Source: Christensenellaceae bacterium (GTDB lineage Bacteria; Bacillota; Clostridia; Christensenellales; Borkfalkiaceae). Taken from it: a DNA stretch of 47,822 nucleotides. The DNA lies in the NCBI GenBank assembly GCA_045655215.1, contig JAZOOV010000059.1, positions 1-47,822 on the forward strand, written 5' to 3'. This document shows, piece after piece, positions 55 through 2,592 of this stretch (its first letter is position 1; the number at the start of each line of letters is the position of its first letter). The notes beneath the pieces were generated by a model. That model saw nothing but the letters and a program-made list of their open reading frames with translations, made no database searches and was not told the origin of the DNA. The position numbers and the translations under genes were made by a program.

Positions 55-1719
55 ATGAAAAAATTTTTGGCTATTTTGTTCTCGCTTATGCTTGTTTTAA
101 CTTCTAGTGCAGGTTTAGTTGGTTGTGACTTTAATCCTGACGACGTAAATAAGGTTGTAGACAACTATTATGAGAATTACAGTAAAATGAACACTACGGA
201 AAGGGGTGCTTATTCTAAGTTTAAGGATATAAACGTAGCATCGTCATACTTAGGCTATGGGTACGACGTTATTAATGACCCATACATGGACGTTAAAAAA
301 ATTGCCGTAAGTTATCCCATCTTAGATTTGGATAAACTTGAAAACGTAAATTTAATGATGCAAAAGGTAAATAACGGTGCAGTTGACGAAAGTTATGGCT
401 CAACAATGGAGGAATTTTATAGCGACTACGCAACTTCGGTAAACGTTTACGGGAATGCAGGAAAGTTTTTTTCTGGTGGCTTGAAATTAGATTTTAGTGG
501 AAGTGCGACACAAAAGAATTATTGGTATTTTTATAAGCTTTCGTATTATTTTGATTCGTTTTATATTCATATTACAGAAAGCGTTGAAAGCTTGCAAAAT
601 TACTTATCGGAAAGTTTCAAAAATGACGTAATAACCATGCCTATAGATCAATTGTTTGAAAGATATGGAACGCATTTAATTAAAGAGGCGGCTATGGGTG
701 GACGTGTTGAGAAAAGCATAACGTACTCATCTGAAAGTAATAATAGCAAGTCGTTAATGAGTGCTGCTGTTAACGCTCATATTAAAATCTTGGGGGCGTC
801 CATTAACGCAGAAGCCTCTACGTCGGCAAATTCTGAATTATCGCAGGCAGGGGTAGAATATAAGAGTAAAATTACGCAACTTGGTGGTAAAGCAATAAGT
901 TTGGTCGGTGACCTAGATTATGAAAAATGGGCTAGCTCTTTTGATGAAAGTTTAGAATATGCAACTCTATGTGGTACGGTTAGCGAGAACTCTCTTGTTG
1001 GTCTTTGGGATTTATTGCCAGAAGGATATGAAACTCGTGCTACCGAAATGAAAAATAGATTCATAGAACTAAGTGGCAATAGATATCAAGAACTTTTAGA
1101 CATGTTTAAATTAACGGACGTTGTTGAAGAAGAACCAGAAGATACTACGTGGGAAACAATAACGGAAAAAATGGCAAAATACAATTGTTATGACAACCAA
1201 AGCTATAAAGAAAGTCAAAAAAATCCTGACGAAGAATGGTATAAAAGACATGAAGGCTGGGAACTTGGAGAATTAAATTTTTATGGTCTTGAAAAGAACG
1301 GAAGCAAATATATTCTAAAAAGTCCACAAGAATTTAACATAAGATACAATTTATTACAGAACATTTCAGAGTTGCCGCTAGGCAAGGGAATCGCTGCATC
1401 ACAAGTTATTGCAAGCGATACGGCCAATGTTGTCGCAAATACTAATATATCTCAAGCAATTGGTATGGGTGCTTATTGGATAAGGATAACGTATGCAGAC
1501 GATACGCAAAAAGAAATAAACAAAACCAATTTCCTTGACGGAAAAACGAAAGGCTCGTATATACAATTATTGTCAAATAGTGATATTGATAAAAATAAAA
1601 CGATTGCCAAAATAGAGATAGTTGTAGTATATGAGATGAATGCAGGAGCTCCTGGCGTTTTTGGAATTTGGTGGGTAGATAGTAGCAATTGGAGATGTGA
1701 GTTCAACCTTGAATTTTAA
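55..1719 (+). CDS. Lipoprotein with MACPF/perforin-like domain and uncharacterised C-terminal domain
   Basis: 554-aa ORF with GGAGG 7 nt upstream of the ATG. N-terminal signal MKKFLAILFSLMLVLTSSAGLVGC has a lipobox-like LVGC. Central FERYGTHLIKEAAMGG fits the MACPF hallmark [YW]-G-T-H-x7-G-G. The C-terminal ~200 aa have no motif I recognise. Confidence 0.6.
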   Translation: MKKFLAILFSLMLVLTSSAGLVGCDFNPDDVNKVVDNYYENYSKMNTTERGAYSKFKDINVASSYLGYGYDVINDPYMDVKKIAVSYPILDLDKLENVNLMMQKVNNGAVDESYGSTMEEFYSDYATSVNVYGNAGKFFSGGLKLDFSGSATQKNYWYFYKLSYYFDSFYIHITESVESLQNYLSESFKNDVITMPIDQLFERYGTHLIKEAAMGGRVEKSITYSSESNNSKSLMSAAVNAHIKILGASINAEASTSANSELSQAGVEYKSKITQLGGKAISLVGDLDYEKWASSFDESLEYATLCGTVSENSLVGLWDLLPEGYETRATEMKNRFIELSGNRYQELLDMFKLTDVVEEEPEDTTWETITEKMAKYNCYDNQSYKESQKNPDEEWYKRHEGWELGELNFYGLEKNGSKYILKSPQEFNIRYNLLQNISELPLGKGIAASQVIASDTANVVANTNISQAIGMGAYWIRITYADDTQKEINKTNFLDGKTKGSYIQLLSNSDIDKNKTIAKIEIVVVYEMNAGAPGVFGIWWVDSSNWRCEFNLEF

Positions 1720-1785
1720 AAAAGTTTCTAACGAAGATTATATTGTAAATTCGTATAAGAAACAAAACAAAAAGGAGAAAGATAT

Positions 1786-2592
1786 ATGAGTAAATTTATA
1801 AGGGCGATTTTTAGCATCTTATTCGTTTGGTTTTTTTGTTTGCTTACTATTGCCTTTGCTTCTCATTTGATAATTAGTGAAACAAAAGACAAAGTAAATA
1901 TTTTTCTAGTTATTACTTCTTTGGTTATATCCGTTTTATTCCTTCTCTACATGTATGGAAAGGTGGGTTGGTGGATGCATTTGTATAGGAATTATTTTGA
2001 TTTTGATAACACTAACAGAGAGGATTCATTCTTTAGAGATGCTATTTTACCAATGTTAAGGTCTATTGTAGGCTACATAGGATATGTTTTTCAGCCACTT
2101 GTTCTTATTATTGCAAATGGCGTCAAGAAAAAAGTTTTAGGTTTGTTTTGTGCAATGCCAATGATAGTGCTAAGTGTGGCGTGCGTGCTTTTGGCTGTAA
2201 ATCCAAGTATTGTTCCTGAATTAAACGAAGTATATGTTAAATTGCCAATTTTTGATTTAATTTTAGTTAAATACGTTTGGGGAACAATAGCCATTATTTT
2301 TTTAGCAAACGCTATTTTTGTTTTTTCAATAAGAAAATGTGTTAACTGTGGTAGTGTAGTAAAGGACAAACATATTCTTGAAACAGAAAGGAAAGGCGAG
2401 TCAAAATCACGATGGTTATCTATTGATGGAACAAACGTTAGTATAGTAGAAGGCGAAACAAATGGATATTGGGCAGATAAGCACTATTACGAATATTATG
2501 AATGCAAAAGGTGTGGTCACGCAGAAAACCTCACTTCTACAAGGAAGCATCTGTCTGTTAGTGAAAATGAATATTACGATAGGGAAAACTAA
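1786..2592 (+). CDS. Polytopic membrane protein (about 5 TM segments) with C-terminal CxxC...CxxC zinc-ribbon
   Basis: 268-aa ORF with RBS aaaaggagaaag. Five hydrophobic stretches are followed by CVNCG...(57 aa)...CKRCGH. It lies 66 bp downstream of the MACPF gene with no terminator between them. Confidence 0.6.
   Translation: MSKFIRAIFSILFVWFFCLLTIAFASHLIISETKDKVNIFLVITSLVISVLFLLYMYGKVGWWMHLYRNYFDFDNTNREDSFFRDAILPMLRSIVGYIGYVFQPLVLIIANGVKKKVLGLFCAMPMIVLSVACVLLAVNPSIVPELNEVYVKLPIFDLILVKYVWGTIAIIFLANAIFVFSIRKCVNCGSVVKDKHILETERKGESKSRWLSIDGTNVSIVEGETNGYWADKHYYEYYECKRCGHAENLTSTRKHLSVSENEYYDREN

Follow-up and report, generated by a model that had tools for sequence, protein, structure and literature searches.

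A lipoprotein-type MACPF family of gut Clostridia encoded beside a divergent XRE gene on an insertable cassette

The contig JAZOOV010000059.1 of a Christensenellaceae bacterium, analyzed here over its whole length of 47,822 nucleotides (the window), starts with two open reading frames (ORFs) on the forward strand, ORF1 and ORF2. Sequence and predicted structure place ORF1 in the MACPF superfamily, as firmly as evidence of these kinds can. Comparison with related loci indicates that the conserved partner of the MACPF gene is a divergent gene for a predicted XRE repressor, not ORF2, and that the XRE and MACPF genes form a discrete insertion. We consider it probable that ORF1 is an XRE-repressed, surface-tethered, pore-forming antagonism toxin on an insertable cassette. 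The XRE partner and the mobility of the cassette are invisible from the window by itself and came to light through the sequences of relatives; a preceding sequence-only reading of the window had treated ORF1 and ORF2 as a functional pair. MACPF pore-formers are known from animal immunity, apicomplexan parasites, Bacteroidales warfare, and insecticidal Proteobacteria. MACPF toxins are thus already known, and what is new here is a family of them in a new phylum-level setting, with a new candidate targeting domain, its regulation, and its module swapping.

Lipoprotein signal and MACPF module of ORF1

The N-terminus of ORF1, MKKFLAILFSLMLVLTSSAGLVGC, opens with a K-rich n-region, which is followed by a hydrophobic h-region and by the lipobox L21-V22-G23-C24, and its layout MKK-FLAILFSLMLVLTSSAG-LVGC fits the lipobox pattern [LVI][ASTVI][GAS]C. 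Cys24 was invariant across the 21-sequence alignment of the ORF1 family, indicating that the lipoprotein signal is a conserved family trait. ORF1 is a predicted lipoprotein of the signal peptidase II (SPII)/Lgt/Lsp pathway, and the LVGC-type signal pointed out in the sequence-only reading is present as stated there.

In a search against Pfam profile hidden Markov models (HMMs), ORF1 matched PF01823 over residues 151-296 with 37.7 bits (E-value 3.1e-9), above the gathering cutoff of 21.5. Its best sequence matches in PDB (phmmer) were two insecticidal MACPFs, GNIP1Aa (E-value 3e-12) and Mpf2Ba1 (E-value 1e-6). The signature YGTHLIKEAAMGG reads Y204-G-T-H-L-IKEAAM-G215-G216, the consensus being Y/W-G-T-H-F/Y-x6-G-G. 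The Y, G, T, H, G, and G of the motif and the R that follows it were invariant in the 21 family members, and position 5 was L or M, never F/Y. The Leu after the His, which had been remarked on as a departure from the MACPF hallmark, is therefore part of a family-wide pattern.

The same 21-sequence alignment was used to build an AlphaFold2 (AF2) model of ORF1 (predicted local distance difference test score [pLDDT] 79). The model has a central four-stranded sheet (strands 99-115, 156-173, 211-226, and 268-276) with helical clusters (118-142 and 232-264) on either side of the four long strands. Foldseek matched it with a probability of 1.0 to perforin, TgPLP1, pleurotolysin B, complement C6/C8/C9, and MPEG1, as well as to the bacterial proteins GNIP1Aa (E-value 4e-14), Mpf2Ba1 (6e-14), Plu-MACPF (1e-12), and Bth-MACPF (9e-10). 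Structures of cholesterol-dependent cytolysins (CDCs) and CDC-like proteins (CDCLs) were matched at a probability of 0.75-0.96, and altogether about 50 MACPF/CDC structures were matched. The profile match and the bent sheet with two helical clusters bear out the MACPF assignment that had been proposed from the motif.

The two transmembrane-hairpin regions (TMH1 and TMH2) had mean period-2 hydrophobic moments of 1.16 and 1.23, respectively, compared with 0.45-0.74 in the rest of ORF1, and the S/T/G/A/N fraction in these regions was 0.5-0.6. AF2 confidence was low within TMH1 at residues 132-142. These features bear on whether ORF1 perforates membranes at all, or is instead a surface adhesin or structural protein that has retained the fold, with ORF2 as an unrelated neighbor. 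MACPFs that form no pores are known (for a review, see PMC5483515), and such a role would agree with the low confidence in TMH1 and with the family-wide replacement of the Phe/Tyr after the motif His by Leu/Met. However, the strong period-2 amphipathicity and the Ser/Thr/Gly/Ala/Asn-rich composition of both TMH regions, together with the invariant GG and YGTH motifs, argue for a pore-former, and tight repression and mobility would be unusual for a housekeeping adhesin. We regard a non-lytic ORF1 as very unlikely.

Divergent XRE gene, cassette insertion, and ORF2

The upstream context of ORF1 had been described as cut off at the window edge. Nucleotides 1-54 align with the control regions of relatives as their right half (Table 1), and since the window, being the whole contig, begins inside this predicted operator, the -35 box and the expected XRE gene lie beyond the edge. 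No cassette-type XRE gene is encoded elsewhere in the window. Of the 11 related loci whose upstream flank could be read, 10 have a divergent HTH_3/XRE gene (67-99 amino acids) ca. 90 bp ahead of the MACPF gene. Full-length relatives have TTGACA-N17/18-TATAAT promoters interleaved with palindromes, and the palindromes vary with the XRE subtype (GCTGTA/TACAGC, TGATGTA/TACATCA, TGTAGGAA/TTCCTACA, and AATTCATA/TATGAATT). The cassette XRE is a small protein of ca. 68 residues. Its best NCBIfam match was the RstR family, with 70.9 bits and thus under the cutoff of 80, and it resembles phage/defense regulators (CapH, the N-terminal domain of RmrA, C-proteins, and RstR). This architecture suggests that XRE represses the MACPF gene. 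RstR-, DicA-, and C-protein-like XRE/Cro cassettes likewise combine a small divergent HTH_3 gene with palindromic operators over the promoter of the cargo. However, no known system couples such a regulator with a MACPF lipoprotein, and the regulator of the ORF1 cassette has no sensor domain, nor was a partner protease or antirepressor seen.

The genes beside the XRE-MACPF unit differ in almost every genome. In the loci L004, L009, and L013, direct repeats bracket the unit of ca. 2.0 kb ([XRE<-][->MACPF]) between convergent host genes. The neighbors are engB and a DUF6062 gene at the L004 site, and ygjV and an amidase gene at the L009 site. The repeats carry the bidirectional-terminator hairpin of the host, their sequence is locus-specific, and the L013 repeat reaches into the host coding sequence on its upstream side, of which it includes the final 27 nt. 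Because the repeats differ from genome to genome and the L013 copy holds host coding sequence, they are target duplications, of unusual length, and not cassette-borne sequence. The XRE-MACPF cassette behaves as a discrete insertion, and no recombinase gene is encoded within it. In the window, the probable right boundary (a hairpin, then a convergent gene) is laid out as in the repeat-flanked relatives. This hairpin is present in a single copy in the window, has a folding energy of -21.6 kcal/mol (z -4.6) and a minus-strand T-run, and resembles a terminator that acts in both directions. The duplicated terminators on either side of the unit suggest an unrecognized mode of insertion for small regulator-plus-toxin cassettes between convergent genes.

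Tight repressor-type control by an XRE protein like those of phage and defense systems, on a mobile cassette, would also suit self-directed lysis or abortive infection, in which the derepressed MACPF would perforate its producer and lead to death, release of contents, or phage exclusion. The lipid anchor would put ORF1 on the producer's own membrane, and most loci have no immunity gene. On the other hand, neither ORF1 nor ORF2 gave a PADLOC match, no defense-island or prophage context was seen in the first 26 kb of the window or in the flanks of relatives, no phage-sensing component is present, and the fast-evolving, swappable C-terminal domain (see below) points to an external, variable target. 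This explanation seems to us distinctly unlikely.

The 66-bp gap between ORF1 and ORF2 reported from the window sequence is exact. No terminator-like site was found in it, and its hairpin is weak (-9.3 kcal/mol) and without a T-run; therefore, ORF1 and ORF2 are likely to be co-transcribed. ORF2 had been described as having about five transmembrane (TM) helices. It is predicted to be polytopic, with four clear TM helices and one weakly hydrophobic segment (91-109) by hydropathy and the positive-inside rule. The latter places both termini, a basic loop (58-116), and the putative zinc ribbon in the cytoplasm and leaves tiny extracellular loops of 9 and ca. 21 residues. The C-terminal CVNCG...CKRCGH is present (CVNC, residues 185-188; CKRCGH, residues 240-245). 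The CxxC knuckles are ca. 50 residues apart, and zinc-ribbon matches in Pfam/NCBIfam scored 10-12 bits, far under the cutoffs; no Pfam, NCBIfam, PADLOC, or PHROG family was matched by ORF2. The four Cys, G58, G61, G96, G99, P104, K114, K115, and P125 were invariant in nine ORF2-family members. Since homologues keep invariant residues (Cys24 and the motif in ORF1, the four Cys in ORF2), ORF1 and ORF2 are real genes and not chance ORFs. The ORF2 family consists of 7 clusters in 1.84 billion representatives (exhaustive HMMER search with a 3-sequence profile), and the metagenome scan found no ORF2 relatives.

We compared the surroundings of 13 MACPF loci with readable flanks. A TM/zinc-ribbon gene follows the MACPF gene in three of them and is absent from the other ten. 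The window and L001 are the only two loci where a demonstrable ORF2 homologue adjoins a MACPF gene, the L001 MACPF being 57% identical to ORF1 and its ORF2 homologue 40-43% identical. In L005-7, a MACPF 82% identical to ORF1 is followed by a 291-residue TM protein with CPKC...CIYCDH and the architecture of ORF2. Because BLASTP found no similarity between the L005 protein and ORF2 and the family HMM scored only 16.6 bits, we take the 291-residue protein as an architectural analogue and not as a proven homologue. Its gene lies at L005:4388-5263, and its N-terminus is acidic and Tyr/Glu-rich. L009, the nearest relative of the window by tblastn (85% in the best segment), has no TM/zinc-ribbon gene; it and L005 are collinear, with 88-96% of nucleotides identical, except that a 919-bp segment bearing the 291-residue gene is missing from L009 (corresponding site, L009:7602-7652). 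Unlike the collinear L005, L009 has an extra ORF of 182 residues upstream of the XRE gene (L009:5053-5601).

Members of the ORF2 family also occur where no toxin gene is present, namely in L024, L025, L027, and L028/L029, and one member, P0038, comes after a transporter-like gene. A divergent XRE gene lies directly upstream of the distant family members P0039 (L024:2-1038), P0041 (L027:87-1264), and P0040 (L029:~190-1248), none of which has a toxin gene, showing that XRE and the zinc-ribbon membrane protein also exist as a two-gene unit by themselves. Strong palindromic operators stand beside these units, e.g., TCTTAATATA...TATATTAAGA, and one XRE next to a toxin-less ORF2-like gene was 45% identical to the cassette XREs. 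No flanking repeats were found around the toxin-less unit L028/L029.

The association of ORF1 with ORF2 is thus real but facultative in both directions. It recurs in L001, so that the two genes do co-occur outside the window; however, with ten of the 13 MACPF loci devoid of such a gene, the conserved adjacency expected of a functional pair is lacking. The more consistent neighbor of ORF2 is the XRE regulator, and ORF2-family genes stand at least as often with XRE alone as with MACPF. ORF2 is more likely a membrane accessory of XRE cassettes than a dedicated immunity protein or receptor for MACPF, and it may protect the cell or, with its putative cytoplasmic zinc ribbon, take part in regulation. 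Given the co-occurrence in 3/13 loci and the ORF2-family genes without a toxin, the immunity, receptor, and export roles suggested earlier remain guesses.

A toxin-immunity or toxin/resistant-receptor pair, in which ORF2 would either protect the producer or, in the manner of BSAP loci, represent a receptor orthologue that the toxin does not target, is nevertheless worth setting out. The probable co-transcription, the recurrence of the pairing in L001, and the TM protein with two CxxC motifs in L005-7, weak as its profile score is, are consistent with it. In L002, an ORF2 homologue was kept with the shared C-terminal domain despite a swap of the MACPF module (see below). In BSAP producers, a non-targeted orthologue of the target adjoins the toxin gene, and the solitary ORF2-family genes elsewhere could be 'sensitive' alleles. 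What makes us think such a pair unlikely is the lack of the gene in ten loci, among them L009, which is syntenic with L005 apart from the 919-bp presence/absence. Moreover, with loops so short and a ribbon predicted to be cytoplasmic, ORF2 would be poorly designed against a 60-kDa extracellular pore-former, and its family is very rare and occurs with XRE alone or beside a transporter.

C-terminal domain, module exchange, and carriers

The sequence-only reading could not assign the C-terminal domain of ca. 200 residues, and this did not change after confident structure prediction and Foldseek searches of PDB and BFVD. Modeled alone (AF2, residues 361-554), the domain reached a pLDDT of 94.4 and a predicted TM-score of 0.90. 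It had no significant structural neighbor in PDB (best E-value 0.06, TM-score <= 0.31) and no meaningful match in BFVD, and no Pfam family was matched. The structures of GNIP1Aa and Mpf2Ba1 (6fbm and 8b6u) were not among the 50 PDB matches listed for the domain. Because a confident model has no structural neighbor in PDB, the domain is not of the beta-tripod/beta-prism type, and its homology to the corresponding domains of GNIP1Aa, Mpf2Ba1, or Plu-MACPF was ruled out for want of a Foldseek match. It is therefore a new, confidently modeled beta domain without a structural relative and a candidate targeting module. Mean pairwise identity was 44% in the C-terminal domain and 55% in the MACPF module, and the former was lower in 190 of the 210 pairs. 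Such faster divergence fits a recognition role, and we infer that the domain provides recognition of the target or membrane.

In several relatives the modules are combined differently. In P0011, P0012, P0025, and P0031, the MACPF module is joined to other C-terminal modules (Glug, Flg_new_2, and pectate-lyase-like repeats), and P0027 retains the usual C-terminal domain with Flg_new_2 inserted ahead of it, after the MACPF module. In all five, a lipobox-type Cys (GC, AC, or SC) ends the N-terminal hydrophobic stretch. A word-index search with the C-terminal domain alone returned two fragments only and was uninformative on other fusion partners.

The loci L001 and L002 form a natural experiment in which the warhead alone was exchanged. 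From pta/ackA/rpmF across the XRE gene and as far as the start codon of the toxin gene, the two loci run collinearly with 80-83% identity at the nucleotide level, and collinearity resumes from about codon 364. In between, the 1.08 kb coding for MACPF in L001 is replaced in L002 by an unrelated 0.92 kb, and the swap is limited to that part. The L002 product is a lipoprotein of 491 residues whose C-terminal domain is 75% identical to that of L001 and 43% to that of the window. It has the divergent XRE gene upstream, and L002 keeps both this gene and the ORF2 homologue beside it. The N-terminal module of the L002 protein (ca. 300 residues) had no match in Pfam, NCBIfam, PDB sequences, PADLOC, or PHROGs. 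It holds a Ser/Thr/Gly-rich alternating stretch (SATVGVNVGVSAFGVSAGAS), which, on an impression from the sequence, could be a beta-hairpin of another, aerolysin-type pore-former.

GNIP1Aa (Chromobacterium piscinae, 6fbm) and Mpf2Ba1 (8b6u/8b6v) are the closest solved relatives of ORF1 in both sequence and fold and, like it, have an N-terminal MACPF module and a C-terminal beta domain. In contrast to ORF1, they are soluble secreted proteins of Proteobacteria without a lipid anchor, and their C-terminal domains are dissimilar to that of ORF1. Plu-MACPF (Photorhabdus luminescens, 2qp2) also has a MACPF module followed by a C-terminal beta domain but differs in having no lipoprotein signal, another C-terminal domain, and a proteobacterial host. 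As ORF1 has no homologous receptor-binding domain and no sign of an insect target was found, it was not classed as an Mpf pesticidal protein.

The kinship with Mpf-class insecticidal MACPFs, the closest matches in sequence and structure, raises the alternative that ORF1 is an anti-eukaryote cytolysin for host, protozoan, fungal, or invertebrate membranes, which may act after engulfment or lysis of the bacterium. Gram-positive CDCs are a precedent for such a target, and a eukaryotic target would remove both the peptidoglycan barrier and the need for an immunity gene. The carriers are gut bacteria of ruminants and other animals, and animal guts are rich in bacterivorous protozoa. Against this, the C-terminal domain is unrelated to the beta-tripod/beta-prism receptor domains of GNIP1Aa, Mpf2Ba1, and Plu-MACPF, and conflict between microbes is the more usual setting for a cassette that is polymorphic, strain-variable, and controlled by a repressor. 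We judge this target improbable.

To see who carries the family, we searched an index of 5.8 billion proteins and obtained 32 ORF1 relatives. PF01823 was present in all 32, none was named, and each occurred on at most six contigs; the five clusters checked, of the ORF1 family and of ORF2 homologues, were all unnamed singletons. Among GTDB representatives, the ORF1 family was found in metagenome-assembled genomes (MAGs) of Christensenellaceae and other Clostridia that came from animal guts, among them sheep colon and goat cecum, with outlying carriers among Anaeroplasmataceae and Coprobacillus MAGs. These members were recovered with an alignment-based scan, and a single-protein scan of the same genomes gave none. 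The MACPF locus of one close relative is flanked by GerA/GerB/GerC and SpoIIE genes. When metagenomes were scanned with the MACPF alignment, most of the MACPFs obtained were distant (22-32% identity) and had no ORF2-like neighbor.

Distant MACPFs (ca. 24% identity, without a lipobox) also occur in cultured Lachnospiraceae, e.g., Eisenbergiella tayi, where they are auto-annotated as 'MAC/perforin domain-containing protein'. Lachnospiraceae MACPFs of 482 residues without a lipobox (L019:845-3056, L020:5311-7395, L049, and L052) have a divergent helix-turn-helix (HTH) gene (138-198 residues) upstream, one of them being that of E. tayi DSM 26961 (WP_069157421.1). Since an HTH gene is also found upstream of these distant proteins, the link between HTH and MACPF genes may reach beyond the ORF1 family. 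The literature searched contained no description of an ORF1-type lipoprotein MACPF in Firmicutes, and searches for MACPFs of Clostridia, Christensenellaceae, or Lachnospiraceae turned up none either. The earlier statement that surface-tethered Firmicute MACPFs are essentially undescribed thus agrees with the literature, although the distant Lachnospiraceae proteins already bear the automatic MAC/perforin annotation. In that literature, lipid-anchored bacterial MACPFs are confined to Bacteroides, lipoprotein signals having then been unique to this genus among MACPFs (Xu et al. 2010), and lipoprotein signals occur also in the CDC-like relatives of Bacteroidota.

Proposed function and other genes of the window

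In the mechanism that we propose, ORF1 would be exported by Sec, processed as a lipoprotein, and lipid-tethered at the outer face of the cytoplasmic membrane of monoderm gut Clostridia (Christensenellales-like). Three modules would make up the protein: a lipid anchor with a flexible linker, the MACPF module, and the fast-evolving C-terminal beta domain. The palindromic XRE operators would overlap the toxin promoter, keeping the gene normally off until it is conditionally derepressed. On derepression, ORF1 would oligomerize, the two amphipathic helical clusters of the MACPF module would refold into membrane-spanning beta-hairpins, and beta-barrel pores would form in a membrane chosen by the C-terminal domain. 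A foreign membrane would be attacked, as in a Gram-positive counterpart of the Bacteroidales MACPF toxins; candidates for the target are other bacteria, protists or host cells, and even the producing cell. We favor a role in antagonism because of the analogy to BSAPs and CDCLs and the polymorphic, mobile, and strain-variable character of the cassette.

BSAP-1 to -4 and Bth-MACPF (BT_3439, PDB 3kk7) share with ORF1 that they are MACPFs of gut commensals with lipoprotein signals. BSAPs are also strain-variable acquired loci with presumed pore-forming antagonism and mostly without a dedicated immunity gene. They differ from ORF1 in the C-terminal domain and in their hosts, and in the literature searched we found no description of XRE control of BSAPs, unlike the situation in the ORF1 cassette. 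Firmicute-type hosts are presumed to have no outer membrane and no lipopolysaccharide (LPS). Because the hosts of ORF1 are monoderm Clostridia, the known targets of BSAPs, i.e., outer-membrane proteins or the LPS O-antigen of close relatives of the Bacteroidales producers, cannot apply to ORF1. Its carriers being MAGs of Christensenellaceae/Clostridia, Anaeroplasmataceae, and Coprobacillus, ORF1 was rejected as a BSAP-type Bacteroidales toxin.

CDCLs of Bacteroidota belong to the MACPF/CDC superfamily, many have SPII signals, and the structures 8g33 and 6xd4 were among the Foldseek matches of ORF1. CDCLs are antibacterial, two-component (long and short) toxins that are activated by C11 proteases and have BcdI, a surface-lipoprotein immunity protein, encoded upstream. 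In contrast, ORF1 is a single MACPF gene whose neighbor is a polytopic zinc-ribbon protein and usually absent; no second superfamily member or extra lipoprotein was found in any flank, and a CDCL-type two-component toxin was rejected. MPEG1/Perforin-2, whose structures 6u2l and 6sb3 matched the ORF1 model, serves as an analogy only: it is a MACPF anchored on the producer membrane that attacks a membrane in trans. MPEG1 is eukaryotic and acid-activated, with a C-terminal TM anchor after the P2 domain, whereas the anchor of ORF1 is an N-terminal lipid beside the MACPF module.

Several points weigh against an XRE-repressed antagonism toxin. Its activity and pore formation are predictions from sequence and model, and several bacterial MACPFs (Plu-MACPF and Bth-MACPF) have, to our knowledge, never been shown to be lytic. 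A lipid-tethered protein of ca. 60 kDa under peptidoglycan has no obvious route to the membrane of another bacterium, a release protease or export partner for ORF1 was not identified, and no immunity gene is consistent across the MACPF loci. For an antibacterial toxin, the cell-wall barrier and the want of a regular immunity gene pose real problems. We deduced the role of the C-terminal domain from its position, its divergence rate, and analogy. All ORF1 family members come from MAGs or metagenome contigs. Both repression and the limits of the cassette were extrapolated from related loci, the XRE gene and the left flank being outside the window. A search of every locus for flanking repeats found them in 3 of ca. 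10, and tblastn matched the cassette to no phage or plasmid of the collections searched. The GC content of ORF1 (0.354) and ORF2 (0.326) is only slightly below that of the window (0.374), and their codon-usage distance falls inside the range of the neighboring genes; compositional evidence for horizontal transfer is weak.

A more speculative combination of these elements, which we think has a small chance of being correct, is that gut Clostridia carry a non-autonomous, terminator-targeting mobile cassette for a polymorphic, surface-tethered pore-former with exchangeable warhead and targeting modules and ORF2 as a protective or receptor-variant partner. The warhead, either MACPF or the unrelated Ser/Thr/Gly-rich module, may then be exchanged independently of the targeting domain. 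If this is true, the cassette would amount to a Gram-positive version of the BSAP kind of warfare, equipped with a new targeting fold and with an insertion mechanism that makes target duplications of 36-65 bp without an encoded recombinase. If the ORF1 family is active, perforin-type attack would extend to monoderm gut anaerobes of the Christensenellales, a group with links to host health whose antagonism has hardly been studied, and the route from a tether below the cell wall to the target membrane would become a puzzle.

Table 1 Positions of the features of the ORF1-ORF2 region (window coordinates) and of selected features in related loci.
Feature	Position	Strand	Basis
Truncated MACPF promoter/operator	1-54	+	Alignment with XRE-MACPF intergenic regions of L009, L005, and L004
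Inverted repeat TGCTGT / ACAGCA	4-9 / 24-29	+	Within 1-54
-10 box TATAAT	9-14	+	Within 1-54
ORF1 ribosome-binding site GGAGG	43-47	+	Within 1-54
ORF1, lipoprotein-type MACPF protein, 554 residues	55-1719	+	Sequence, Pfam, PDB sequence matches, homologues, alignment, AF2, Foldseek
Lipoprotein (type II) signal peptide with lipobox LVGC, predicted to leave lipidated Cys24 as the mature N-terminus	55-126	+	Sequence; Cys24 invariant (n = 21)
MACPF pore-forming module (predicted), residues ~45-350	187-1104	+	Pfam PF01823, PDB sequence matches, Foldseek, AF2, amphipathicity
TMH1, residues 116-155	400-519	+	Within MACPF module
MACPF signature, residues 204-216	664-702	+	Sequence
TMH2, residues 227-268	733-858	+	Within MACPF module
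C-terminal beta-rich domain, residues 361-554, putative targeting/membrane-binding module	1135-1716	+	AF2, divergence, L002 fusion
ORF1-ORF2 spacer, 66 bp, with ORF2 ribosome-binding site (AAAGGAG), no intrinsic terminator	1720-1785	+	Sequence, terminator and hairpin scan
ORF2, polytopic membrane protein, 268 residues	1786-2592	+	Sequence, hydropathy, alignment
ORF2 cytoplasmic C-terminal split zinc ribbon, C185/C188 ... C240/C243	2338-2514	+	Predicted
Strong hairpin between convergent ORF2 and 305-residue gene, probable right cassette boundary	2609-2652	.	Folding
L004 direct repeats, 36 nt, 100% identical	7660-7695 and 9684-9719 (L004)		
L009 direct repeats, 58 nt, identical core of ~35 nt	5588-5645 and 7599-7656 (L009)		
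L013 direct repeats, 65 nt, 100% identical	5575-5639 and 7699-7763 (L013)		
Lipoprotein of 491 residues, non-MACPF N-terminal module and shared C-terminal domain	6471-7946 (L002)		Comparison with L001

The gene convergent with ORF2 (2677-3594, minus strand; 305 residues) has an acidic central region, and the hairpin at 2609-2652 is its likely terminator; it had no Pfam, NCBIfam, PADLOC, or PHROG match. A cell-envelope cluster at 8488-13169 encodes a Wzy_C/O-antigen-ligase-like membrane protein, a short-chain dehydrogenase, UDP-galactopyranose mutase, and an LPG_synthase_TM protein, which suggests galactofuranose-containing surface glycans in the window organism. A patatin-like phospholipase gene (23264-24049, minus strand) adjoins a dUTPase gene in a region that is otherwise housekeeping (tmk, holB, PSP1, and an ABC transporter). 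The ORF of ribosomal protein L9 (13224-13826, minus strand; 200 residues) has a TTG start, with the L9 N-terminal domain not beginning before residue 54; translation probably starts at a codon downstream of the listed TTG.

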